From the IMG/VR virus record IMGVR_UViG_3300042898_002514: a stretch of DNA of 64,000 bases. One strand, written 5' to 3'. The DNA is from a virus. The notes under the pieces were generated by a model. It had not been told where the DNA came from. It saw nothing but the letters and a program-made list of their open reading frames with translations, and did no database searches. The translations under genes and the position numbers were made by a program. Below, one piece after another: positions 36,780 to 64,000 of the stretch (positions are counted from its first letter, which is position 1; each line of letters begins with the position of its first letter).

Positions 36780-38681
36780 ATGTCTAAGATCATCGGTATT
36801 GACCTCGGCACCACGAATTCTTGCGTGGCTATCGTCGAAAATGGAATTCCCAAAGTTATTGAGAATTCAGAAGGTGCTAGAACTACACCCAGCGTGGTTG
36901 CCTACACCAACAATGAAATTCTAGTTGGTGCCAGCGCAAAACGCCAGGCAGTAACAAATCCCAAAAACACCATCTATGCTGCCAAGCGTTTGATTGGTCG
37001 TAAATTCACTGAGGATGCAGTTCAAAAGGACATCGACCTGATGCCTTATGAAATTATCCAAAACGGTAATGGTGATGCTTGGGTCAAGGCAGGAGAACAA
37101 CGTCTTGCTCCTCCGCAGATTTCAGCAGAAGTTCTGCGTAAAATGAAAAAGACAGCGGAGGATTATTTAGGTCATGAAGTTACTCAAGCAGTTATCACAG
37201 TTCCTGCGTACTTTAACGACAGCCAAAGACAAGCTACCAAGGATGCTGGACAGATTGCCGGCTTGGAGGTACTGCGTATTATTAACGAGCCTACTGCGGC
37301 AGCTCTTAGTTATGGCGTTGATAAGTCTGATAAAGCTGACAGGAAGATTGCTGTTTATGATCTTGGTGGCGGTACTTTCGACGTATCGATCATTGAGATC
37401 GCGAACGTGGAAGGCGACAAACAAATCGAAGTACTAAGCACCAATGGTGACACCTTTCTAGGTGGTGAAGATTTTGACCAACGCATTATGGAATTCCTAG
37501 TTGATGAATTCAAGAAAGATTCCGGAATCGATCTCAAGAAAGATATGCTTGCCCTACAGCGTTTAAAAGATGCTGCTGAAAAAGCCAAGATTGAATTATC
37601 GAGTTCTGCACAAACAGAAGTCAATCTTCCATACGTTACAGCTGATGCTAGTGGTCCTAAACATCTAGTGGTAAAGATCACCCGTGCAAAACTAGAAAGT
37701 CTTGTAGCTGATCTAATCGAACGTAGTCTAGCACCTTGCCGCACAGCTATGAAAGATGCAGGCATTACCGCCACTGACATCGACGAAGTTATTCTTGTTG
37801 GTGGTCAAACACGTATGCCTAAAGTACAAGAAGCTGTTGAGCAACTGTTTGGCAAAGCACCCCGTAAAGATGTTAACCCCGACGAAGCTGTGGCCGCAGG
37901 CGCCGCCATTCAAGGTGCTGTTCTAGGTGGTGATCGCAATGACGTTTTGTTGTTGGATGTTACACCGTTGAGTCTAGGCATTGAGACCATGGGTGGCATT
38001 ATGACCAAGCTGGTGCAAAAGAATACAACTATCCCAACTAAAGCTAGTCAAACATTCTCTACAGCAGAAGACAACCAGCCTGCTGTGACCATCAAAGCGT
38101 TTCAAGGTGAACGCGAACTCGTACAACATAACAAGTTACTAGGCGAGTTTAACCTAGAAGGTATTGCACCAGGACGCAGAGGACAACCTCAGATTGAAGT
38201 GAGTTTTGACATTGACGCCAACGGTATCATGCACGTCAGCGCCAAAGACAAAAACACCGGCAAAGAAAACAAAATCACTATTAAATCAGATAGTGGATTG
38301 AGCAAAGAAGAAATCGAGCGTATGGTTCAAGATGCTGAAGTCAATGCAGAAGCAGATAAGAAAGCACGTACACTGATTGAAACACGTAATGGTGCTGAAG
38401 CACAGATGCACGAAGTACGTAAAGATCTAGAAGAGTTCCGTTCAGAACTTTCTGAAACAGAAATCACTGAGTTAGAAACAGTGATCAAAGCAGTAGAAGA
38501 AGCTACCAAAGGCACAGACCCTGAAAAGATCACTGAAGAACTCAACAAGGTTTATCCGGCAATGAAAACATTATTGGATAAAAAGCAGGCCAAGGAACAG
38601 GCAGCTCAGGCGCCTCAACCAGAAGCCAAAGCAGATGACAATGTGGTAGACGCTACGTTTACTGAAACTAAGTTTAGCTAA
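36780..38681 (+). CDS. dnaK: Hsp70 chaperone DnaK
   Basis: [25 protein letters not shown]; full length. Confidence 0.98.
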
Positions 38682-48144: not shown

Positions 48145-48237
48145 TATGGTCTCACCGCTTTGTCTATAGACCGGGTATATGTATACCGTGTTGACGACCT
48201 ATAAAACCAACACCTGTTGGCTAGTTACTCCCCAAGG
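48145..48237 (-). promoter_or_regulatory. yybP-ykoY (Mn2+) riboswitch
   Basis: Minus strand reads CCUUGGGGAGUA...GUCGUCAACAC...GGUGAGACCAU directly upstream of TerC. Confidence 0.88.
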
Positions 48238-48258
48238 TATTTAGCGATAAATATTACT

Positions 48259-50319
48259 ATGAAAAAGCTACTATTAAACCCTTGGACCGCATTGGTCACT
48301 CTAGCATTAGTATTAGGCATCCGTCTTGTAGATCCTAGTTTTATTGAAAGCGTAAGACTACGTTATTTTGACACATTAGTAACTAGTCAACCTGCCAACG
48401 ATGTTCCTGTTTATACAGTCAACATTGATGAAGCAACTCTAGACAAGCTAGGACAGTTTCCTTTCCCTAGAGACATGTATGCTGATATCATTAAAGAGAT
48501 TTATAGACGTGATGCCGGACTGGTTGTGTTTAACGTGCTAATGCCAGAGAAAGATCGTTTTGGCAAGGATGCCGTACTAGGTGAAACACTTAAGAAGTAT
48601 CCTGTGGTATTACCAGCACTAGGAAGTGAACGTCAAAAGAATATTACTCATAGAACACCTGCACAAGTAATAGGCATGGATCCTAAGGGACTAGTTGTTG
48701 AGTATCCAGGATTGATTAGTAATGTGGAGCCGCAAGAAAGTCTAGCAGCAGGTGTTGGTATTGTTAATACATTTCCAGAGATAGACGGTGTTGTTCGTCG
48801 TATGCCCATGGTCATACTAAGTCAAGAAAAACTACATCCTAGTCTAGCATTAGAGACACTGCGTGTGGCTGCCAAGGATCCCAAGTTCCAAGTCAAGATT
48901 GGTGACATGGGTGTAGAAGCTGTGCGTGTTCCTAAGTTTGGCAAAGTACCAACGGACAACGAAGGTCGTGTTTGGATTGATTGGTCAGCAACGCCTAGAG
49001 AATACAGTTACATGCAGTTGCCTGAATCATTTGACGGCGGTATTGTTATTGTTGGACTCAGTGCTGCTGGTCTGGTAAACCCTGTTAGTACAGCCAAAGG
49101 TGAAGTATGGCCACAATACCTACAAGGTGCAGTCATTGGCACTATGATGACGCAGAGCAACATACAGCGTCCAGGTTGGGCTGACCAAGCTGAGATCATT
49201 GCCTTGCTGGCCGCTGGATTACTAGTACTATTTTTATCAAGGTGGACCTATGCTTTTATTCCTGTTGTTGTCTTTCTCGGCGGCAGTCATTTCGCTATAT
49301 CTTATCTATATGAAAACTCCAGAATCCTATTGGACGCCACTTGGTTTGTTGTTGGCTGTAGTCTGGTATACATTCACGCTTATAGTGTCAAATTTTTAAG
49401 CGAGTACTTGCAAAAGTCACAGATTAAGAAACAGTTTGGCAGCTATGTAAATCCTGTAATTGTTGAACGCCTACAAAAAGATCCTAGCTTTATTAAACTA
49501 GGCGGAGAGAAGAAAGACCTTACCATCATCATGAGTGACATGCGCAACTTTACTGGCCTAGGTGAAACCTATGGTGATGACGTTGTGGCATTTACACAAA
49601 CAATGAATCGTTATATGACTGCCATTGCTGAACCTATACTGCGCAACAATGGATGCTTGATCAAGTTCATTGGTGATGCTAGTCTGCACGTTCATGGTGC
49701 TCCGATCCAAGAGCTTCAAGATCCTGATCATGCTCACGCTGCTGTCCGCACTGGACTAGAAATGATTCATGCTGTTGAACTGTTTAACATCGAACTTGAA
49801 CGAGAAGGAAAGCCACGTGTAGGTATGGGTTTGGGTATTAACACCGGTCCTACACTAATCGGTAACATTGGTAGTAAAGACCGATTTGGATATGATGTAC
49901 TAGGTGACTCAGTTAGTTTAACAGCACGACTAGAAAGTCAAACCAAGAACTATGGACAACTAATCATTATCAGTGAAAGCACAGAGAAGCGTGTTAACGA
50001 TCAGTACTTTACTATTCCTTTAGACTGTATTGCAGTCAAGGGCAAGACCATTGGTGTTAATATTTTTACTGTATTCTACATGCCTGATGAAACTGTAGCA
50101 GTTAAATGGAACACTGCCCGTGATATGCATAACGGTATGTTGACCTATTATAAGCAGCAAAAGTGGGATGACGCTATAGAATTATGCAAGACACTCACTG
50201 GTGAATTTGACGGCAATATGGATCACTACTATGAACTGTGGATTGAGCGTATAGCTGATATGCGCTCTAGAGATTTACCAAAAGATTGGGACGGTACCTA
50301 CAAAGCTACCTCGAAGTAA
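48259..50319 (+). CDS. CHASE2-domain class III adenylate/guanylate cyclase
   Basis: VNIDEATLDKLGQFPFPR, DGVVRR, three TMs, SDMRNFT, KFIGDA, GDSVSLTARLES; start revised to MKKLLL. Confidence 0.95.
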   Translation: MKKLLLNPWTALVTLALVLGIRLVDPSFIESVRLRYFDTLVTSQPANDVPVYTVNIDEATLDKLGQFPFPRDMYADIIKEIYRRDAGLVVFNVLMPEKDRFGKDAVLGETLKKYPVVLPALGSERQKNITHRTPAQVIGMDPKGLVVEYPGLISNVEPQESLAAGVGIVNTFPEIDGVVRRMPMVILSQEKLHPSLALETLRVAAKDPKFQVKIGDMGVEAVRVPKFGKVPTDNEGRVWIDWSATPREYSYMQLPESFDGGIVIVGLSAAGLVNPVSTAKGEVWPQYLQGAVIGTMMTQSNIQRPGWADQAEIIALLAAGLLVLFLSRWTYAFIPVVVFLGGSHFAISYLYENSRILLDATWFVVGCSLVYIHAYSVKFLSEYLQKSQIKKQFGSYVNPVIVERLQKDPSFIKLGGEKKDLTIIMSDMRNFTGLGETYGDDVVAFTQTMNRYMTAIAEPILRNNGCLIKFIGDASLHVHGAPIQELQDPDHAHAAVRTGLEMIHAVELFNIELEREGKPRVGMGLGINTGPTLIGNIGSKDRFGYDVLGDSVSLTARLESQTKNYGQLIIISESTEKRVNDQYFTIPLDCIAVKGKTIGVNIFTVFYMPDETVAVKWNTARDMHNGMLTYYKQQKWDDAIELCKTLTGEFDGNMDHYYELWIERIADMRSRDLPKDWDGTYKATSK

Positions 50320-56375: not shown

Positions 56376-56969
56376 GTGATAAGTAATAGTAATCCCAAGG
56401 AGCAGATCTTGAAGAAAATTGATGAGTTCAATGCTAGTGATAGAATTGGCGTAAAATTATTAGACAATTCCATCCACTATCTCGGTGGTGAAATCACTGC
56501 TGAAAATGTGGAGGAATGCATCAAATGGATTGTTTATGAAAATCTCGAAGTCAAGGAAAAAATACTCACCCTTTATGTAAATTCCACAGGGGGAGATCTA
56601 TATCAAGCATTTGCTCTTATAGACATCATGCAGAGCAGTAAACACAGTGTGAGAACTATTGGTGTTGGCAGTATAATGAGTGCTGCCTTTTTGATTTTTG
56701 CTGCGGGCGCCAAAGGAGAACGATACCTAGCTGCCAACACAGGAATTATGTGTCATCAGTTTTCTGGGAGTGCCGCTGATATTAAGTTTCACGACCTCAA
56801 GGCTGAAATGAAGGAAAACGAATTCTTGAATCAAAAGATGATCAATATACTGCAACAGGCCACGGATCTAACACCATCAAAGATAAAATCAAAATTGTTA
56901 CCGGCTTCAGACGTTTATATGACTGTTCAAGAAGCACTAGATTTTGGTATCGCAGATCAATTACTATAG
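56376..56969 (+). CDS. Second, divergent ClpP-like protease (start uncertain)
   Basis: YVNSTGGD, SIMSAA, IMCHQ, DVYMTVQEALDFGIAD. Confidence 0.85.
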   Translation: MISNSNPKEQILKKIDEFNASDRIGVKLLDNSIHYLGGEITAENVEECIKWIVYENLEVKEKILTLYVNSTGGDLYQAFALIDIMQSSKHSVRTIGVGSIMSAAFLIFAAGAKGERYLAANTGIMCHQFSGSAADIKFHDLKAEMKENEFLNQKMINILQQATDLTPSKIKSKLLPASDVYMTVQEALDFGIADQLL

Positions 56970-56976
56970 GACACAC

Positions 56977-57231
56977 ATGGAAGTCATCAGCATCAACAGC
57001 AAACGCAAAGAAGATATTCAACAGCAAGAACAAAAGAAAGCCATGTTAGCAGTGATTGAATTCATCAAAGCGGAAATAGAAAGCGATAGCATAAAAGAAT
57101 TTGTGGCCTGCTCAATCGACGACGGCGGAGAAGTCCAGATACACGTGGCAGCAATGGATCTCCCTGGAAGTGTGGGTCTGTTTGAAATCGGCAAACACAT
57201 TTTGATCACGGGTGAAACAACATTTGAGTGA
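56977..57231 (+). CDS. Hypothetical protein
   Basis: AGGA SD; start revised to MEVISIN. Confidence 0.7.
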   Translation: MEVISINSKRKEDIQQQEQKKAMLAVIEFIKAEIESDSIKEFVACSIDDGGEVQIHVAAMDLPGSVGLFEIGKHILITGETTFE

Positions 57232-57269
57232 ATGTGGTAAAAAAGCCACATAATCAGATCATATTTTTG

Positions 57270-57298
57270 TTGACATATAAATAAAAAGACATTACAAT
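57270..57298 (+). promoter_or_regulatory. Sigma70 promoter P1 of the tRNA operon
   Basis: TTGACA-N17-TACAAT. Confidence 0.8.
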
Positions 57299-57355
57299 AC
57301 ATACAGTTGGTTAGGAAGGCGTCAAAATTTATTTTGCCAAAACGGCAAATAGAGG

Positions 57356-57384
57356 TTGACAAGAGAACTAAATAACTGTATAAT
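57356..57384 (+). promoter_or_regulatory. Sigma70 promoter P2 of the tRNA operon
   Basis: Perfect TTGACA-N17-TATAAT, followed by a 5' hairpin at 57391-57413. Confidence 0.9.
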
Positions 57385-57432
57385 TAAAACATAGACAGCA
57401 AGGTGCTGTTTATAAAAGGAAAAAGAAAGCAA

Positions 57433-57576
57433 ATGAAATCATTTAACAGACATCAGTTTAATACGATGCCCAAACAGGTAGGTGTAATAGCCTGCTCTTG
57501 GTTATCGATTAATGGTGGAAGTTTATCATATGATCGTACACCAGAGATTTCAAGGGTCCGGGAGGACGTAGTGTAA
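57433..57576 (+). CDS. Putative attenuator leader peptide (47 aa, all 20 amino acids)
   Basis: MKSFNRHQFNTMPKQVGVIACSWLSINGGSLSYDRTPEISRVREDVV; purine-rich RBS (AAGGA 57416-57420); below the ORF-track cutoff. Confidence 0.7.
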   Translation: MKSFNRHQFNTMPKQVGVIACSWLSINGGSLSYDRTPEISRVREDVV

Positions 57577-57640
57577 AGTAAAACATACACCGCAAACTTC
57601 AAGGACCCTGGGAATTAAAACTCCTGGGGTTTTTTGTTTT
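57553..57640 (+). promoter_or_regulatory. Antiterminator (57553-57609) / intrinsic terminator (57605-57640) switch
   Basis: AGGGTCC/GGACCCT, GAGG/CTTC and GTGTA/TACAC versus ACCCTGGGA/TCCTGGGGT plus TTTTTGTTTT; both need 57605-57609. Confidence 0.8.
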
Positions 57641-57648
57641 AAGGAACA

Positions 57649-57801
57649 ATGACAGAGAAAAAGATTAAAGAAGCAGAATGGACAGTGACGCACACTCTTA
57701 CTAAGGATCAGTTTTTGAAACTGATCCATAATAAGGTGAAACGTGTGGCACAGTATCATCGAGCTATAAACAAGCAGGAAAGTAGGCCAAATGCCCGCTA
57801 G
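57649..57801 (+). CDS. Small basic protein (50 aa), first gene after the attenuator
   Basis: AAGGA SD; MTEKKIKEAEWTVTHTLTKDQFLKLIHNKVKRVAQYHRAINKQESRPNAR. Confidence 0.6.
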   Translation: MTEKKIKEAEWTVTHTLTKDQFLKLIHNKVKRVAQYHRAINKQESRPNAR

Positions 57802-57907
57802 TACTGCAACGTGGTAGGGGAAACGAGGTCCTCGCAACACACGATAAACAGTTGTAAACGGGCGGCCTAGGCGATGAAGTCTCTTTTGTGAGATAAAAAA
57901 CCCTAGC

Positions 57908-58020
57908 GTATTAAAGCATTCTTTACGAACAGTCAGACTAAGTAGTTTAGAATGTTTTAATACACACATTCTTCATTCAGCTCTTGACGCTGTCTAAAAG
58001 CATAGCGGAGAGTGTGTTTA
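57908..58020 (+). repeat. Two tandem CAUU/ARUG-core hairpins (elements D and E)
   Basis: 57908-57922 pairs with 57949-57963; 57961-57972 pairs with 58009-58020. Confidence 0.65.
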
Positions 58021-58028
58021 CAATTTAT

Positions 58029-58117
58029 GGAAGTGTGCGCTGAATTGGTTGAAGGCAACGGACTGTAAATCCGCCACATAAGAAACATTGTAGGTTCGAA
58101 TCCTACCACTTCCACCA
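58029..58117 (+). tRNA. tRNA-Tyr(GTA)
   Basis: Cloverleaf, long variable arm, CCA. Confidence 0.93.
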
Positions 58118-58123
58118 AGTTTT

Positions 58124-58199
58124 GCCTCGTTCATATAACGGTCTATTATATCCGCCTGTCTAGCGGAATACAGGGGTTCGACTCCCCTACGAGGCGCCA
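58124..58199 (+). tRNA. tRNA-Asp(GTC)
   Basis: Cloverleaf; loop CT-GTC-TA (U37). Confidence 0.9.
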
Positions 58200-58205
58200 G
58201 TTTAT

Positions 58206-58281
58206 TCCCCGATAGCACAGAGGTAGTTGCGCTTCGCTGTTAACGAAGATGTCGTACGTTCGATCCGTACTCGGGGAGCCA
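58206..58281 (+). tRNA. tRNA-Asn(GTT)
   Basis: Cloverleaf, GCCA end. Confidence 0.93.
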
Positions 58282-58287
58282 GACAAT

Positions 58288-58361
58288 GTATCTCTAATGT
58301 AATGGCAGCATCACAGTCTCCAAAACTGTTCGTCGGGGTTCGAGTCCCTGGAGGTACGCCA
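58288..58361 (+). tRNA. tRNA-Trp(CCA)
   Basis: Cloverleaf, GCCA end. Confidence 0.92.
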
Positions 58362-58369
58362 AACAATTT

Positions 58370-58444
58370 GCACGATTCGTCTATCGGTTAGGACGCTGCC
58401 CTTTCAAGGCGGAAAGACGAGTTCGATTCTCGTATCGTGTACCA
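58370..58444 (+). tRNA. tRNA-Glu(TTC)
   Basis: Cloverleaf. Confidence 0.93.
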
Positions 58445-58451
58445 ATATACC

Positions 58452-58525
58452 GCGGGATTAGTTTAATGGTCAAACGAAACCTTGCCAAGGTTTAGTCAGG
58501 AGTTCGATTCTCCTATCCCGCTCCA
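58452..58525 (+). tRNA. tRNA-Gly(GCC)
   Basis: Cloverleaf, U73. Confidence 0.93.
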
Positions 58526-58528
58526 TAT

Positions 58529-58620
58529 GCCAGCGAGACTTGACAGTCAGAGAGTCCTTATAAGACTTTTAGCGCCAGATTAGCGTTCTTGAGAGGGTTT
58601 GATTCCCTCCGCTGGTACCA
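58529..58620 (+). tRNA. Atypical tRNA with TAT anticodon (nominal Ile)
   Basis: GCCAGCG/CGCTGGT acceptor, 4-nt D loop, CT-TAT-AA loop, long variable arm, TTTGATT T loop. Confidence 0.7.
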
Positions 58621-58626
58621 CACCAT

Positions 58627-58704
58627 ATAGGGATGGCAGAGAGGCCCAATGCAACAGTCTGCAAAACTGTAAACCCGTGGGTTCGAATCCCACTCCCTAT
58701 TCCA
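58627..58704 (+). tRNA. tRNA-Cys(GCA)
   Basis: Cloverleaf, U73. Confidence 0.92.
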
Positions 58705-58708
58705 ATAT

Positions 58709-58785
58709 ACCCCTGTACGCTAATTGGTAGTGCGGGTAGACTTAAAATCTGCTGGATGGCGGTTCGAATCTGCCCAGGGGTACCA
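58709..58785 (+). tRNA. tRNA with TAA anticodon (nominal Leu), short variable loop
   Basis: Cloverleaf, 5-nt variable region. Confidence 0.85.
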
Positions 58786-58853
58786 ATCAACCAGTCTTGG
58801 ACACGCAGACTTTAAAGCGATGTGGGAGTAGGTGGAAGCCCTGCACCTAATAT

Positions 58854-58943
58854 GGAAGTATGGCTGAGCATGGCTTAAGGCAGCAGTCTTGAAAACTGAA
58901 GGCTCGAAAGGGTCCGTGGGTTCGAATCCTACTACTTCCGCCA
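58854..58943 (+). tRNA. tRNA-Ser(TGA)
   Basis: Cloverleaf, long variable arm, G73. Confidence 0.93.
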
Positions 58944-58947
58944 ATTT

Positions 58948-59021
58948 TCCCGGATAATTAAATGGTATAATAATCGGCTGATAACCGGTCTTCGCAAGTT
59001 CGATTCTTGCTCTGGGAACCA
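58948..59021 (+). tRNA. tRNA-Ile(GAT)
   Basis: Cloverleaf. Confidence 0.9.
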
Positions 59022-59124
59022 ATTTTTAAAATGGAGAATGACATGAAACGAGGTAAACTCTAGTGTCATCCTAGACCCCCGTATGGTCCTGGATGGCACG
59101 TAAAAGAAAATATTTACGATCCAT

Positions 59125-59199
59125 CCACGCTAAACTTTAGTGGCGAAGTACCCGGCTCTTAACCGGACTAACTGAGTTCGATTCTCAGAGCGTGGACCA
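59125..59199 (+). tRNA. tRNA-Lys(CTT)
   Basis: Cloverleaf, CT-CTT-AA loop. Confidence 0.85.
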
Positions 59200-59202
59200 T
59201 AT

Positions 59203-59278
59203 GGGAGTATAGTGAAATGGTTATCACAGCAGACTTTTAATCTGCCAGTTCCGGGTTCGAGTCCCGGTGCTCCTACCA
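59203..59278 (+). tRNA. tRNA-Lys(TTT)
   Basis: Cloverleaf. Confidence 0.93.
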
Positions 59279-59359
59279 TAGACAAACACATTAGAAGCCT
59301 TCGTGACTGTGGGCGAGTAGGTCTCTAAGTCGTTTCCGACTAGTGTGTTTTTCTATGGT
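59275..59359 (+). repeat. ACCA-anchored long hairpin, element A
   Basis: ACCATAGACAAACACATTAG / CTAGTGTGTTTTTCTATGGT, 45-nt interior. Confidence 0.8.
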
Positions 59360-59464
59360 TAGTATCAGAAGATGTGATCGAAACAGGTGTACTAGTCATA
59401 CACAATGTCGTGACCGGAGGATGAGAAGTCGCAAGAGTAGGCCTGACCGCTAGAGGGTAGCGAC

Positions 59465-59552
59465 ACCATATAAAAACACATTAGGCCTGATCATAGATCA
59501 TCGCGGGTATAGTGCCTTCCGAGCCGCGGACTTGAGTGTGTTTTTATATGGT
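59465..59552 (+). repeat. ACCA-anchored long hairpin, element B
   Basis: ACCATATAAAAACACATT / AGTGTGTTTTTATATGGT, 52-nt interior. Confidence 0.8.
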
Positions 59553-59624
59553 AACGTAGCATAATGGTCGTGCACCTCCTTCATACGGAGCAAGGTGCTG
59601 GTTCGAATCCAGCCGTTACCACCA
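59550..59624 (+). tRNA. tRNA with CAT anticodon (Met or Ile2)
   Basis: Cloverleaf, TT-CAT-AC loop. Confidence 0.88.
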
Positions 59625-59627
59625 AGT

Positions 59628-59824
59628 TTTGTAAGTGTCAGCAAGAGAAAGACTCGCTAGGAAGATTCTTCGAAGGTCAACCTAGTGCAAAAGTAGGGCG
59701 GGTTCGAGTCCCGTAAAAGCAGCGGAGCACCTATGTCAAGTATTCCAAGTGATGTACCACCTCCCGTCCGGACCAGTGCAATCGGGTGAATGGTAGAGAT
59801 TAAAGTGGCTCTACTACTTACAAA
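59628..59824 (+). ncRNA. Unassigned ~200-nt structured RNA
   Basis: Closing stem TTTGTAAGT/ACTTACAAA, UUCG hairpin, internal T-arm mimic. Confidence 0.6.
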
Positions 59825-59833
59825 TTCAATTAT

Positions 59834-59909
59834 CTCTCTAAAGTGTTATCTGGTTGCATCCGCGGTTTGGGGCCGTGTGGTCTAGGTTCGAATCCTAGTA
59901 GGGAGACCA
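59834..59909 (+). tRNA. tRNA-Pro(TGG)
   Basis: Cloverleaf, G37. Confidence 0.9.
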
Positions 59910-59917
59910 GTTTCTGT

Positions 59918-59991
59918 TGGGGGTTAGTTAAATGGTATAACCGCGGATTTTGATTCCGCTATTAAAGGTTCGATTCCTTTACCCTCTGCCA
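59918..59991 (+). tRNA. tRNA-Gln(TTG)
   Basis: Cloverleaf, U1.U72 mismatch. Confidence 0.9.
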
Positions 59992-59998
59992 AATTTAT

Positions 59999-60075
59999 CG
60001 GACCGTAATTCAATTGGATAGAAAGCAAGTCTTCGAAACTTGAGGTTGGGAGTTCGAATCTCTCCGGTCCGGCCA
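59999..60075 (+). tRNA. tRNA-Arg(TCG)
   Basis: Cloverleaf. Confidence 0.9.
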
Positions 60076-60091
60076 TATAAAGGAAAATGCT

Positions 60092-60259
60092 ATGAAAACA
60101 ATTACATTTAAAAATAGATTCAACAATGAGCGAGTGGTCTGTAATGATCCCAAGGCTGTACAAGTAATTGACGGCATTGAGTACCTGTTGGTCAGCAAGA
60201 CCATTCAAGATAGAAAATTTCTAATGCGTAAAGATGCATTGGAGAAGATTAAAACATAG
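60092..60259 (+). CDS. Small hypothetical protein (55 aa)
   Basis: AAGGA SD; MKTITFKNRFNNERVVCNDPKAVQVIDGIEYLLV... Confidence 0.65.
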   Translation: MKTITFKNRFNNERVVCNDPKAVQVIDGIEYLLVSKTIQDRKFLMRKDALEKIKT

Positions 60260-60265
60260 ATCAAT

Positions 60266-60339
60266 GTTGTTCCTAGTGTAGTGGCTGCACAACTGTCTGT
60301 GAAACAGTTAGAGAGGGTTCGATTCCCCGGTTCAACCCA
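60266..60339 (+). tRNA. tRNA-His(GTG), irregular
   Basis: G-1/C73, CT-GTG-AA loop; two U.U mismatches in acceptor, irregular T stem. Confidence 0.7.
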
Positions 60340-60355
60340 ACAAAGTAGAAATATC

Positions 60356-60760
60356 ATGGAACAAGTAAAAATATTAAACACATTAAAGGGATCTGTTCGT
60401 AAGTTCGAAGAATTACTAGGACGATCATTGTACAAGGCAGAAGCAGACGACTCAGTATTGACACTGTATCTGTCCAAGACAAACTATGTAAGATTCCAAC
60501 ATCACCAAGATTGTTGCGAAAGTGTTTACATAGAAGACATATGTGGTGACCTCGATGACCTTGTGGGAGCACCACTAGTTGAAGCTGAAGAAGTTTCTGA
60601 CTATGAAGGTGAAGCTACAGGAGACGAGTCTTACACATGGACATTTTACAAGTTTGCTACACGCAAGGGATTTGTAACTGTTCGGTGGTATGGTTCCAGC
60701 AATGGATACTATTCCGAAAGTGTCAGTGTTGATGTAGTTGATACTACTATAAAGGATTAA
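60356..60760 (+). CDS. Conserved phage protein (HQDCCE motif)
   Basis: HHQDCCESVYIEDICGDL, WTFYKFAT, WYGSSNGYYSE; start revised to follow the His tRNA. Confidence 0.8.
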   Translation: MEQVKILNTLKGSVRKFEELLGRSLYKAEADDSVLTLYLSKTNYVRFQHHQDCCESVYIEDICGDLDDLVGAPLVEAEEVSDYEGEATGDESYTWTFYKFATRKGFVTVRWYGSSNGYYSESVSVDVVDTTIKD

Positions 60761-60761
60761 T

Positions 60762-60837
60762 GCAACTTTAGCTGATGTGGTCATAGCGGCGGTTTGAAGA
60801 ACCGTTGAACCAGGTTCGATTCCTGGAGGTTGCACCA
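60762..60837 (+). tRNA. tRNA-Phe(GAA)
   Basis: Cloverleaf, G37. Confidence 0.92.
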
Positions 60838-60875
60838 AGACAAATGCGAGAATGGTGGAATTTAATAAATATTAT

Positions 60876-61439
60876 ATGAACATATTATTCCTTCCAATTG
60901 ATATTGAAATTCCAAAGATTGATACATCAAAAATACAGTCTACAATTAACGTCATCAACAACCTAACCTACATAAAAACTGCAGAGTATCAACAGTATTG
61001 GGATACTTCTAGAATTACTGAAACAGTTGATGATACTTTAAAATCTGTACTAGATCAGTTGCCTATAAGCAAAGTAACAAATGTATATTATAAAGAGCAA
61101 AGACAAGCTGTGTCACCTCATTACGATGTATATCCAAATATGAAATTTGAAGAAGGAGAATACACTAATATTTTAGATAACGAACCTGCAGGGTATCGTC
61201 TAGTCCTAGAAGGGTCCACTGATGTACTTTATGTTAAAAGTGGAGGCACGTTTAAGTTAGCAGAATTGCCATCTGTGCCTTGTTGTTATCTTTTAAATAC
61301 CACAGCAGGGCTACACATGCTCAAGGATGATCCGGGCAGAAAGATTATCTATATTAGAGGATTTATTGATACAGCAAGGCATCAGACGCTGATAGAAAAA
61401 AGTCTCAAACGTTATAAAAATTTAGCAATTATTGCATAA
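60876..61439 (+). CDS. Cupin/2OG-Fe(II) oxygenase-like protein
   Basis: PHYD...LLNTTAGLH...RKIIY; TAAATA upstream. Confidence 0.6.
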   Translation: MNILFLPIDIEIPKIDTSKIQSTINVINNLTYIKTAEYQQYWDTSRITETVDDTLKSVLDQLPISKVTNVYYKEQRQAVSPHYDVYPNMKFEEGEYTNILDNEPAGYRLVLEGSTDVLYVKSGGTFKLAELPSVPCCYLLNTTAGLHMLKDDPGRKIIYIRGFIDTARHQTLIEKSLKRYKNLAIIA

Positions 61440-61443
61440 CATT

Positions 61444-61518
61444 GCCGCCTTTGTATAATAGAGAATACAGCTCTCTTCCAAAGTGCGAATAGGAGTTCGA
61501 TTCCTAGAGGTTGCACCA
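61444..61518 (+). pseudogene. Chimeric pseudo-tRNA (TCC anticodon, 3' end matching tRNA-Phe)
   Basis: Poor acceptor pairing; 61495-61519 matches 60814-60838 at 24/25 nt. Confidence 0.7.
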
Positions 61519-61563
61519 ACTAAGTTGGACTCTTAGAACTCTACATAATTAATAAATACCAAC

Positions 61564-62127
61564 ATGCAAAACTTTTATAAACACTTTCCAGAAATAGATA
61601 ATGTATATTGGACTAACTATTTTTTGAAAGAATTCATACCAAAATATAAAATTTTTGAACAATTGTCTAGTCCTTTATATATGATGTATTTTAAAAAAGA
61701 TTTTTATAAAGATTTAGAAATATTAAAACTTAGTTCGTTGCTAGTTAGTAAACTAAAATTTCCACCGATTGAATATTTTTCAATATTTAAACACACGTAT
61801 TCCCAGGCCATTCATGCTGATGGTAAATCAACATTGAGATATGCAAGCTTCAACTTACCTCTCGTGGGGTTTGAAGGGACAAGGATGTGTTTTTATAATA
61901 CAAAATCAAATGTTATTCCTAAAGTAGCAGATGCTTATTATTTTAAAGAAGATGATGTATGTCTTGCTACAGAACTAGAAGGCAAGAATGAATGGACATT
62001 AGTAAACAGTTCAATCCCACATAATATTGTGAATGTAGATTTTAATAATCCTAGAATAACAGTATGCATTAGATTTAATGGTAATCCAAAACTTGAGGAT
62101 CTAATAACAAATGAAATTCAATCCTAA
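61564..62127 (+). CDS. Cupin/2OG-Fe(II) oxygenase-like protein
   Basis: IHADG..ASFNLPL..LVNSSIPHNIVN..RITVCIRF; AT-rich; TAAATA upstream. Confidence 0.65.
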   Translation: MQNFYKHFPEIDNVYWTNYFLKEFIPKYKIFEQLSSPLYMMYFKKDFYKDLEILKLSSLLVSKLKFPPIEYFSIFKHTYSQAIHADGKSTLRYASFNLPLVGFEGTRMCFYNTKSNVIPKVADAYYFKEDDVCLATELEGKNEWTLVNSSIPHNIVNVDFNNPRITVCIRFNGNPKLEDLITNEIQS

Positions 62128-62159
62128 GGACGGCACCAAAAAATATTTTAAAATAACTG

Positions 62160-62188
62160 TTGACAAGATAACGTAATGACTATATAAT
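62160..62188 (+). promoter_or_regulatory. Sigma70 promoter for the second tRNA block
   Basis: TTGACA-N17-TATAAT. Confidence 0.88.
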
Positions 62189-62241
62189 AGTTACATACTA
62201 AGCAATTAGTAATGTTCATTAAAAATTTAAAGTAAGATTTT

Positions 62242-62325
62242 GCGCAAGTGGTGGAATGGTATACACGATGGTCTTAGAAGCCATTGCCGAAAGGATTGAG
62301 AGTTCGAGTCTCTCCTTGCGCACCA
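62242..62325 (+). tRNA. tRNA-Leu(TAG)
   Basis: Cloverleaf, long variable arm. Confidence 0.93.
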
Positions 62326-62408
62326 TATTGAAACATATTAAAGATAGGGTTGTAACGGTTCATTGAACTTTAGTACATACCGTGGTAGTTAGTGTGTTTC
62401 AATATGGT
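62322..62408 (+). repeat. ACCA-anchored long hairpin, element C
   Basis: ACCATATTGAAACATATTAA / TTAGTGTGTTTCAATATGGT, 47-nt interior. Confidence 0.8.
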
Positions 62409-62418
62409 AAAGAATTTT

Positions 62419-62493
62419 GCCTGGTTAGCTCAGGGGTAGAGCGTCTCGTTTACACCGAGAGGGTCCGCGGTTCGAAACCGTGACCAGGTACCA
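62419..62493 (+). tRNA. tRNA-Val(TAC)
   Basis: Cloverleaf. Confidence 0.93.
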
Positions 62494-62512
62494 CTAGTAG
62501 AAAGAAGACTGT

Positions 62513-62653
62513 ATGATACCCAAAGAAATTATAGACCAGGCATACCGAAATATTCCTAACAAAGTGGGGTTTGCTGTCAATTGGAATTTTACGCCGACTT
62601 GGCGTGGTGTGAGATATTACTGGTATAAATTACTACGTAAAGCAACAAGATAA
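62513..62653 (+). CDS. Small hypothetical protein (46 aa)
   Basis: MIPKEIIDQAYRNIPNKVGFAVNWNFTPTWRGVRYYWYKLLRKATR fills the gap between tRNAs. Confidence 0.5.
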   Translation: MIPKEIIDQAYRNIPNKVGFAVNWNFTPTWRGVRYYWYKLLRKATR

Positions 62654-62654
62654 T

Positions 62655-62742
62655 GGAGCATTGGCCGACCGGTTAAGGCAACAGATTGCTAATCTGTCAC
62701 TGCGCAAGTGGTGAGTAGGTTCGATTCCTACATGCTCCGCCA
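62655..62742 (+). tRNA. tRNA-Ser(GCT)
   Basis: Cloverleaf, long variable arm. Confidence 0.93.
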
Positions 62743-62744
62743 GA

Positions 62745-62935
62745 ACGTTCCGAGTGTCTTCGGATAGTGTGACCCGCACGATGAGAAGTAGTGTGACAAC
62801 TACGGGTGGTAGTCTTTAAACCCAAAGGCCGCTAGCAATGCGAGAACGGTCCCTGTCGGGAAGCGGGTGGAAGGTACGAGTGAGAGGTATGATAGCGTCA
62901 TATCTTTCTGTACTATAATTACCGCCGGGGGACGT
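62745..62935 (+). ncRNA. Unassigned ~190-nt structured RNA
   Basis: Closing ACGTTCC/GGGACGT, several internal stems, motif shared with 59406-59465. Confidence 0.6.
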
Positions 62936-62967
62936 CAGAGCAACCAGATTTTAATAAAGGAAACATA

Positions 62968-63180
62968 ATGAAACCAGGTCCAAATTACAAGATGTCATCT
63001 TTGACTAAAGCAAGTCTAGCAATGAGTAGAGTTCTAGATCCTCACAAGCGAGGTGAGTGGAAACGTGCCATGATTGATGCAGAGCTATGTGCCGCTGTTC
63101 AACCCAAGCGTGAAACACGCAAACCGGGCAATGGTAATTTTACCACCCATGCATCTGGGACCGTATCTTCAGGAAGTTGA
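62968..63180 (+). CDS. Small hypothetical protein
   Basis: AAGGA SD; MKPGPNYKMS...WKRAMIDAEL. Confidence 0.7.
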   Translation: MKPGPNYKMSSLTKASLAMSRVLDPHKRGEWKRAMIDAELCAAVQPKRETRKPGNGNFTTHASGTVSSGS

Positions 63181-63181
63181 T

Positions 63182-63472
63182 ATGAGCAAGGGATCTAAAG
63201 CAAGACCCTTTAGTGTCAGCCAGCGTGAGTTTGACAATAGATGGGATACAATTTTTCGCAAGAGTCCTCAAGAAGTGCAAGATGCAGTTCGAGAAGATGA
63301 AGAATTTAACAGGATTGATACTATGCAAGTACGAGTAAAAGAAGATGAAAGTAAAATCGGATCTTGCGGTTGCGGTCGTTCGCCAACCGGCAAGTGCATC
63401 GGTTGGCACGGACTAACCGAAGAAGCATTTAAAGAAAAACTTCAAGAGTATAAACTCAACGAAGGTAAGTGA
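63182..63472 (+). CDS. CDGSH-like Fe-S/Zn finger protein
   Basis: CGCGRSPTGKCIGWH; start revised to MSKGSKARP. Confidence 0.7.
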   Translation: MSKGSKARPFSVSQREFDNRWDTIFRKSPQEVQDAVREDEEFNRIDTMQVRVKEDESKIGSCGCGRSPTGKCIGWHGLTEEAFKEKLQEYKLNEGK

Positions 63473-63478
63473 AATATT

Positions 63479-63554
63479 GGGGGATTGGTATACTTGGCTA
63501 ACACACCTGGTTTGCAACCAGGAGCAAACGGTTCGAATCCGTTATCCTCCACCA
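63479..63554 (+). tRNA. tRNA-Ala(TGC)
   Basis: Cloverleaf with G3.U70. Confidence 0.93.
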
Positions 63555-63560
63555 AGCATT

Positions 63561-63634
63561 GCCCTTATAGTTAAATGGTATAACGGCGGTTTTGTAATCC
63601 GCAGTTTGCAGTTCGATTCTGTGTAGGGGCACCA
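63561..63634 (+). tRNA. tRNA-Thr(TGT)
   Basis: Cloverleaf. Confidence 0.9.
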
Positions 63635-63650
63635 ATATAGTCAAAAGATG

Positions 63651-63679
63651 TTGACAAACATCTTGTATAGTGCTATAAT
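63651..63679 (+). promoter_or_regulatory. Sigma70 promoter
   Basis: TTGACA-N17-TATAAT. Confidence 0.88.
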
Positions 63680-63946
63680 AGTTTTGTTGTGTAGCAATAC
63701 ACAACCGGCAAAGTGAAAGGTAGATGAGAGAAGACACTACTGTTTGGCTTCATGCCAAATGGAACTTAACTCCAAATACTCTGAAAAAGTATCCGTGTCA
63801 TTGTGTTCCGGCCCCAAAAGATATTTGTTTATTGATTACCGGAAATATAGTGACCCCTGTGGATTGTATATTGAGCATTGTTATTTGCACATTGTCCAGT
63901 CTTTTACTTGACCTTTCACTGAACCGTTTTTTAACCTGAGGAAAAT

Positions 63947-64000
63947 ATGACATCAAGATTAACATCAGAATTAGCAGTAGAACAGATAGGCAATAGGTTT
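63947..64000 (+). CDS. rpoZ: RNA polymerase omega subunit-like protein (partial)
   Basis: GAGGA SD; MTSRLTSELAVEQIGNRF resembles the omega N-terminus (ARxTxExxxxxIxNRF); only 18 codons visible. Confidence 0.65.
   Translation, partial: MTSRLTSELAVEQIGNRF

Follow-up and report, generated by a model that had tools for sequence, protein, structure and literature searches.

Why phages carry tRNA arrays and when they use them is debated, and it has been suggested that the tRNAs compensate for codon usage, substitute for host tRNAs that have been degraded, or help to evade defences that cleave tRNAs. A leader region located ahead of such an array in IMG/VR record IMGVR_UViG_3300042898_002514 raises a related question, namely whether transcription of the tRNAs is itself controlled, and by what signal. 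The DNA analyzed was a 64,000-nt stretch of this record, hereafter called the window, whose gene content is phage-like (ribonucleotide reductase, DnaK, and a ClpP-type protease). The leader region consists of tandem promoters, a short open reading frame (ORF), and an intrinsic terminator. The original prediction regarded it as an attenuator in which the ORF audits the tRNA pool, a core reading that was supported by comparative tests on homologous loci.

Conservation of the leader ahead of the tRNA array

Relatives of the window were found as IMG/VR contigs of up to 383 kb, and the bearers of the element are a clade of very large phages. By using the ClpP-like neighbour gene as a query, 78 IMG/VR loci were retrieved, and 51 further loci were obtained with an invariant 19-mer from the leader ORF. 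A protein search with the leader peptide gave 31 hits, and a subsequent profile search gave 379. The comparative set comprised about 60 metagenomic phage loci and 158 distinct variants of the leader peptide, which are 45–54 residues long with identity down to about 33%. Across the relatives, the region 57231–57660 exhibited 67–86% identity. No INPHARED phage record matched 57200–58030 in either near or distant DNA searches, so that no cultured relative was found there. The leader peptide matched no Pfam or PHROG family, and an Rfam scan of 56500–64000 with E up to 1 returned only tRNAs and chance hits, without any family for the leader.

The features of the region are listed in Table 1. The two sigma-70 promoters, the 47-codon ORF with its 20 amino acids and 34 distinct codons, an antiterminator (57553–57609) whose 5' arm is formed by codons 41–47 and which competes with the terminator for 57605–09, and a set of 19 tRNAs for 17 amino acids ahead of the next promoter had all been named in the original prediction, together with 24 tRNAs for all 20 amino acids in the whole window; each of these counts and coordinates was confirmed.

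Table 1. Features of the leader region and of the tRNA array that follows it in the window
Feature	Position	Strand	Evidence or remark
Promoter P1, TTGACA-17-TACAAT	57270–57298	+	Sigma-70, 11/12; both hexamers conserved in alignment A1
Promoter P2, TTGACA-17-TATAAT	57356–57384	+	Sigma-70, 12/12; hexamers invariant in alignment A1
5'-terminal hairpin of the P2 transcript, ATAGACAGCA/TGCTGTTTAT	57391–57413	+	Present in minimum-energy and centroid folds
Leader ORF, 47 codons and TAA, all 20 amino acids	57433–57576	+	Homologues in 40 DNA loci and 158 distinct peptides
Putative sensing core, codons 1–38 (M...SYDRTPE), already with 20 amino-acid types	57433–57546	+	Core contains all 20 in 118/157 variants
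Nearly invariant block AGTYTATCATATGATCGYACACCAGAG, codons 30–38, containing the palindrome ATCATATGAT	57520–57548	+	Alignments
Antiterminator 5' strand, AGGGTCC and GGAG, codons 41–44	57553–57564	+	RNAalifold consensus, compensatory changes, minimum-energy fold
Apical hairpin GTGT/ACAC around the stop codon TAA (57574–76)	57571–57590	+	Double changes in 4/4 pairs
Antiterminator 3' strand, CTTC and GGACCCT	57597–57609	+	Consensus structure; 57605–09 common to the terminator
Intrinsic terminator, ACCCTGGGA (57605–13)/TCCTGGGGT (57622–30), then T run	57605–57640	+	−16.8 kcal/mol
50-codon ORF, putative first read-through product, good AAGGA Shine-Dalgarno	57649–57801	+	Present in only some relatives
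Putatively gated tRNAs, 19 for 17 amino acids	58029–60837	+	Upstream of the next 12/12 promoter at 62160

Each of the 36 distinct loci has two or more near-consensus promoters upstream of the leader ORF. A hairpin is kept at the 5' end of the P2 transcript in the homologues, where its stem sequences differ, and it may serve as a stabilizer of the RNA. The leader ORF is retained in 40/40 DNA homologues with an invariant ATG, a length of 45–55 codons, and TAA as the stop codon in 39/40. The conserved ORF anticipated upstream of tRNA arrays in related phages was indeed found. Wherever a locus extends more than about 600 nt downstream, a same-strand tRNA array begins 262–1027 nt past the leader stop. 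The first tRNA of the array varies among the loci (Tyr, Asp, Ile, Pro, Glu, Val, or Ala), and the gene on the other side is likewise variable, ClpP not being constant across loci. Because the array always follows while the upstream gene varies, the element travels with the tRNA array and not with its upstream neighbour.

The expectation that this region gates the array held in part. Between the terminator and the first tRNA of the window (57640–58028), no promoter scoring 10/12 or better was detected, and 28/36 of the relatives' loci, like the window, have no comparable promoter in this interval. In the other 8/36, an extra consensus promoter is located just before the first tRNA, after the terminator, and gating would there be only partial. 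The 50-codon ORF that stands first beyond the terminator of the window matched no Pfam or PHROG family.

Competing helices and the fixed stop codon

RNAalifold folding and pair counts were based on alignment A2, which contains 38 sequences. The consensus structure was the antiterminator, not the terminator. Its outer helix pairs AGGGTCC (57553–59) with GGACCCT (57603–09), its middle helix GGAG (57561–64) with CTTC (57597–600), and its apical helix GTGT (57571–74) with ACAC (57587–90), the last enclosing the stop codon. For these 15 pairs, 94.9% of the cells were paired, with changes on both sides in 9 of the 15 pairs and in 50 cells. The observed pair values were attained by 0/500 shuffles, and slid controls were 22–48% paired. 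Examples of the compensatory changes are an outer pair that turned from A-U to G-C and a GUCC/GGAC stretch that became GUUC/GAAC. The terminator, with a GC-rich stem of 8–9 bp, was paired in 100% of the cells in the 38 sequences and contained one compensatory pair. The covarying stems expected for an attenuator were hence recovered. Since five columns (57605–09) are common to both structures, the antiterminator and the terminator are mutually exclusive.

The calculated energy of the free RNA was −23.3 kcal/mol for the antiterminator versus −16.8 kcal/mol for the terminator, and the full-length minimum-energy fold, with a z-score of −4.5, contains the former. The free leader therefore favours the antiterminator, and an untranslated leader should read through. 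An anti-antiterminator of the region-1 type was searched for in the leader and none was found, the 5' arm not being predicted to pair upstream. The upstream hairpins within codons 15–38 were well paired and exhibited no covariation. Among the leader hairpins, a candidate at 57506–57536 with its outer pairs was 89% paired with almost no covariation; the 3' strand of this possible hairpin, which would pair with 57506–19, lies in the nearly invariant block 57520–57548, and it may serve as a pause hairpin that keeps polymerase and ribosome in step.

The position of the stop codon is fixed relative to the RNA structure in 40/40 homologues, as had been expected, at 20–28 nt past the start of the 5' arm and 23–32 nt ahead of the 3' arm. 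This holds even though at least two reading frames are used across the arm (frame 0 in 29 sequences, frame 2 in 10). Among the C-terminal tails are such different peptides as …SRVREDVV, …RVRRTVV, …EPGSVEMLV, …REGWDG, and …GFLEGSGYA, and the differences among the homologues are frame-restoring indels, e.g., GGGAGGAC versus GGAGGACT. What appears to be conserved at the ORF tail is the RNA, together with the need for a ribosome to cross the arm and halt inside the loop. A ribosome with its A site on a stop codon covers roughly 15 nt upstream and 12–15 nt downstream. Given this footprint, a ribosome at the leader stop would mask the inner helices and the greater part of the 5' strand, with the 3' arm left exposed. 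If the ribosome instead stalled with its A site no further than about codon 36, the arm would stay free.

The Shine-Dalgarno sequence of the leader ORF is weak or badly spaced, the window having AAGGA 12 nt away from the ATG and the relatives having GAGA-like sites. That the ORF is translated is suggested by the selection on its amino-acid set, described below, and by indels in multiples of 3 nt. When the same genome pairs were compared, the amino-acid identity was 0.59 for the leader versus 0.69 for the adjacent ClpP-like gene, whereas the codon identity at identical residues was 0.80 for the leader versus 0.51 for that gene. The peptide is thus conserved below the level of its own codons, in line with the poorly conserved peptide that had been foreseen. 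The fixed leader codons include TTT, AAT, CAT, TAT, GAT, AGT, ATA, ACA, CCA, and GAG, and T is the third base of 91% of the two-fold NNY codons in the leader, versus 60% in bulk genes. Such a pattern fits a regulatory frame, in which the codons or the RNA would weigh more than the peptide. The constraint on synonymous sites could also stem from an RNA-level function instead of codon choice. The block 57520–57548, which is conserved even at synonymous sites, contains the 10-nt palindrome ATCATATGAT.

Amino-acid set and codons of the leader

The leader of the window uses 20 amino-acid types and 34 distinct codons, among which are four Arg codons (AGA, CGT, AGG, and CGG), four Ser codons (TCA, TCT, TCG, and AGT), and ATA; TTA is its sole Leu codon. 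At the phage composition, the chance of obtaining all 20 types was p = 0.019 for 47 residues and p = 0.004 for 39 residues. Windows of real phage proteins contained the full set in 2.1% (47 residues) and 0.6% (39 residues) of cases, and other ATG-ORFs of 40–55 codons in all the fetched loci in about 2%. The full set in the ORF of the window alone is therefore weak evidence and unremarkable, and the caveat attached to the original prediction, that 20 types in 47 codons can arise by chance, was justified by this p of about 0.02. The decisive evidence comes from the homologues, because the complete set, the ORF, and both helices are conserved there and the helices covary.

Among the 158 distinct variants, 136 contain all 20 types and the other 22 contain 19, the missing type being mostly Cys; none contains fewer. 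The complete set is already present in the 35–40 residues ahead of the arm in 118 of 157 variants, and in 98 of these 118 it is the last residue of the core, the Glu of …TPE, that completes it. The leader has no codon runs, and its rare residues are usually single-copy and mobile, Cys for instance being found in at least six alignment columns. The rare residues tend to be relocated when they are lost from their usual position. In the variants that lost the Tyr of SYD, a Tyr was present elsewhere in 43/43, typically as ASYW, whereas a second Tyr occurred in 17/115 of those that kept it. His was present elsewhere in 38/38 variants when off its usual column versus a second copy in 16/120 when on it, and the corresponding figures were 80/97 versus 4/61 for Cys and 12/13 versus 55/145 for Lys. 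On the DNA tree, at least 10 moves of the single Cys and at least 9 of His are counted, with no tip lacking either residue.

Shuffling within columns yielded 32.5 ± 2.9 sequences with all 20 types (maximum 44) versus 60/67 observed. A tree-aware simulation, in which the columns evolved independently along the DNA tree with their own composition and fitted rate, yielded 18.9 ± 6.3 (maximum 35 in 2000 runs) versus 36/38 observed. We take this as selection on the completeness of the amino-acid set in the leader. Such selection makes sense only when the frame is decoded, which argues for its translation. A short ORF would here be under selection of a new kind, which keeps the complete amino-acid set and not the sequence.

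The excess diversity that had been expected over shuffled controls was thus observed for amino acids, above both the shuffled and the tree-aware expectations, but not for codons, as the 34 distinct codons equal the 33.3 ± 2.1 obtained by synonymous recoding of the same peptide. The leader was not enriched in phage-decodable codons (0.83 versus 0.79 in bulk genes) or in Watson-Crick cognate codons (0.40 versus 0.49). A match between the leader codons TTA and ATA and the phage tRNAs with TAA and TAT anticodons had been suggested from the window, and this idea was not supported by the comparison of 23 loci, in which no covariation was found between leader codons and array anticodons (ATA/TAT, TTA/TAA, AGA/TCT, GGA/TCC, and others). 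In several loci, the leader keeps its Cys though the array is devoid of tRNA-Cys. Loss of Cys from the leader showed no clear correspondence with loss of tRNA-Cys: of two Cys-less leaders, one precedes an array without tRNA-Cys within 10 kb, and the other an array with an odd tRNA-Cys(ACA). Since the leader does not mirror the array, it would sense the combined host and phage pool, if it senses tRNAs.

Proposed attenuation of the tRNA array

From the comparative evidence, the element is best described as a ribosome-mediated transcription attenuator that governs read-through into the phage tRNA array, with a leader peptide selected to contain every amino acid; we give this reading a probability of about two in three. 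Two strong early promoters would fire into the leader. A naked leader RNA would fold into the antiterminator (57553–57609), in which the 5' strand of the terminator is sequestered, and the RNA polymerase would continue into the tRNAs. When translation proceeds smoothly to the stop codon at 57574 inside the antiterminator, the ribosome would occupy or unwind the 5' strand (codons 41–47); the freed 3' strand would then pair with 57622–30, and transcription would end at the T run (57636–40). Were the ribosome to stall at any point from codon 2 to about codon 36, or not to load at all, the antiterminator would be kept, and transcription would extend over the small ORF and the tRNAs. Because this stretch of codons covers 19–20 amino acids, a lack of almost any one charged tRNA would raise the transcription of the array, the net effect being a homeostat for decoding capacity.

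The switch most likely gauges the ability of the cell to translate whichever codon it meets, and allows the tRNAs to be transcribed when translation is impaired. We lean, with modest conviction, toward the stricter form of this proposal, a virus-encoded sensor of the whole pool that performs a 20-amino-acid test translation, the completion of which turns the tRNA operon off and failure of which at any codon turns it on. Loss of tRNAs, amino-acid starvation, and a general slowing of ribosomes are not told apart by the present data, and a link of the element to anticodon nucleases is speculation.

The RNA switch may instead be real but set otherwise, by general ribosome loading or coupling or by a trans-acting protein or RNA of the phage or host that acts on the block 57520–57548, with the complete amino-acid set as a side effect. 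The synonymous conservation of that block with its palindrome, the lack of covariation between codons and tRNAs, and the read-through default of the ribosome-free RNA, by which any general drop in initiation would open the switch, all agree with such a control. We nevertheless consider it unlikely, as it leaves unexplained the relocation, rather than loss, of single-copy Cys, Tyr, His, and Lys, the excess of complete sets over the tree-aware expectation, and the stop codon fixed inside the antiterminator across frames; in addition, no Rfam family, T-box included, was matched.

A further proposal is that the terminated leader transcript (about 245–330 nt) or the peptide acts in trans, beside or instead of attenuation in cis. 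Transcription from the strong tandem promoters would yield the short RNA in large amounts, its sequence is conserved beyond structural need, and the Sinorhizobium rnTrpL/peTrpL system provides a precedent (PMC6614838, PMC7298713). This is quite improbable, because the strict linkage to the tRNA array and the complete amino-acid set are not explained by it; a trans-acting leader RNA or peptide is compatible with the attenuator reading, the two not being exclusive. Very unlikely, finally, is an ordinary small protein gene with strong early expression and its own terminator, where pairing stabilizes the 3' end of the mRNA and the tRNAs are transcribed from other promoters: although the ORF is conserved with its ATG and TAA, is labeled a hypothetical protein by gene callers, and is followed by a promoter ahead of the tRNAs in 8/36 relatives, the covarying helix competes with the terminator and does not extend it, the C-terminal quarter of the peptide frameshifts while the RNA is kept, its amino-acid identity is lower and its codon identity higher than those of the neighbouring protein gene, a complete amino-acid set follows from no protein function, and the first tRNAs have no other consensus promoter in the window and 28/36 loci.

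The attenuator so proposed resembles the trpL, hisL, pheL, leuL, thrL, and ilvL attenuators of E. coli and that of pheST in that a short leader ORF is followed by a mutually exclusive antiterminator and terminator. As in the amino-acid operons, the stop codon is placed such that a terminating ribosome would mask the 5' strand of the antiterminator, and a stall upstream would lead to read-through; the geometry of the ribosome at the stop is that of the trp attenuator. The leaders of the amino-acid operons carry codon runs for the one to three amino acids that are regulated, whereas the phage leader has no runs and only one or a few codons for each amino acid. Enrichment in regulatory codons, a criterion for attenuators, is accordingly not found in it, the rare amino acids occurring mostly once. 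The regulated genes also differ, being tRNAs in the phage element versus biosynthetic enzymes or a synthetase in the known attenuators. In the absence of a region-1 anti-antiterminator, a phage leader that is not translated is expected to allow read-through, in contrast to the trp leader, which terminates when untranslated.

T-box riboswitches are similar in that tRNA charging is read out through an antiterminator/terminator switch, by which genes related to translation are controlled. However, a T-box directly binds one specific uncharged tRNA and contains no ORF, whereas the phage element has a conserved frame and no Rfam T-box match. The pyrBI and pyrE attenuators are similar in that the readout depends on the distance between ribosome and polymerase over a leader ORF near the terminator. 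A close ribosome prevents termination in pyrBI, whereas an arriving ribosome is proposed to promote it in the phage element, and NTP-dependent pausing is used by pyrBI and pyrE, whereas it is the ORF composition that appears to be selected here.

As with the tRNA clusters of T4, T5, vibriophages, and huge phages, the element is associated with a large array in a large phage, which would plausibly help where host tRNAs are lost to degradation or are ill matched. Phage tRNAs have been discussed in relation to tRNA-targeting defences such as PARIS (PMC11464382). Full-text literature searches, whose coverage was incomplete, returned no report of a cis-regulatory sensor ahead of a phage tRNA array, the papers found treating what phage tRNAs do. 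We read the element as a variant form of ribosome-mediated attenuation, for which these searches gave no earlier description.

If the proposal is true, the element would be the first attenuator that responds to decoding capacity as a whole and not to a single metabolite, as well as the first known cis-regulatory logic for phage tRNA arrays. It would widen classical attenuation from one amino acid to the whole pool, and the element, being natural and compact, could be used to report translation capacity. Huge phages would then supply tRNAs on demand when the host tRNAs decay, are cleaved by defence nucleases, or misfit the codon usage of the phage. A conserved switch of this kind, with all 20 amino acids in its leader, would demonstrate that tRNA production responds to decoding trouble in at least one phage lineage.

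Invariant block and codon endings of the leader ORF

A nearly invariant block within the 47-codon leader ORF, 57520-57548 (codons 30-38), was conserved among 38 phages even at its synonymous sites. It contains a perfect 10-nt palindrome, ATCATATGAT, at 57525-57534, which might bind a protein, contribute to a pause hairpin, or represent fixed codons. When the codon endings were compared over the 38-phage leader alignment (A2), the T-ending share of two-fold NNY codons was 91% for the leader ORFs versus 60% for bulk genes. The leader NAY codons for queuosine-type tRNAs (Asn, Asp, His, and Tyr) were all fixed as NAT in these phages, except for a few AAC codons for Asn.

Sequences flanking the leader

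Features of the window and of homologous loci of related phages are listed in the table. The promoter module located upstream of the leader was inserted as a third copy in two relatives, indicating that promoter copy number varies. Just 5' of the first promoter (P1), a hairpin of GCCACAT-TA-TGTGGC followed by a T run was observed in most relatives (columns 5-40 of A1, the alignment of homologous leader regions) and probably terminates the upstream operon. The 3' arm of its counterpart in the window (57236-57265) is degenerate. On the other side of the leader, a 50-codon ORF starts 9 nt past the T run of the intrinsic terminator, and read-through would yield its product first; the ORF gave no family match in Pfam or PHROG. 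Most relatives possess an SD-ATG at the position 3' of the terminator, but the 50-codon ORF is kept in some relatives and deleted in others. The 139-codon ORF on the opposite strand is probably spurious, because it spans sequence that some relatives have and others lack.

Features of the window and of related loci (L-prefixed)
Feature	Locus	Coordinates	Strand	Remarks
Third copy of GGTTGACA...TATAAT promoter module	L007	4976-5040		between P2 and leader ORF; A1 columns 200-300
Third copy of GGTTGACA...TATAAT promoter module	L014	4993-5050		between P2 and leader ORF; A1 columns 200-300
50-codon ORF	window	57649-57801	+	AAGGA Shine-Dalgarno, well spaced
139-codon ORF	window	57550-57969	-	overlaps terminator and downstream 50-codon ORF
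tmRNA	L130	3513-3897		upstream of leader; 375-kb relative
GrpE	L130	19654-20151		after array; 375-kb relative
DnaK	window	36780-38681
ClpP-type protease	window	56376-56969
700-aa protein, CHASE2 sensor and adenylate/guanylate cyclase domains	window	48217-50319

Unusual tRNAs and accompanying genes

ARAGORN assigned a tRNA-Cys with the anticodon ACA (A34) within the array of the L130 phage (L130:12728-12801), whose leader contains no Cys codon; this is either an unusual anticodon or a mis-call. In the window, the sequence between array segments at 61444-61515 matched the tRNA model with 23.7 bits, below the gathering score of 29, and could represent either a degenerated tRNA or some tRNA-like element. 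The lineage of the window and L130 carries many translation and proteostasis genes.
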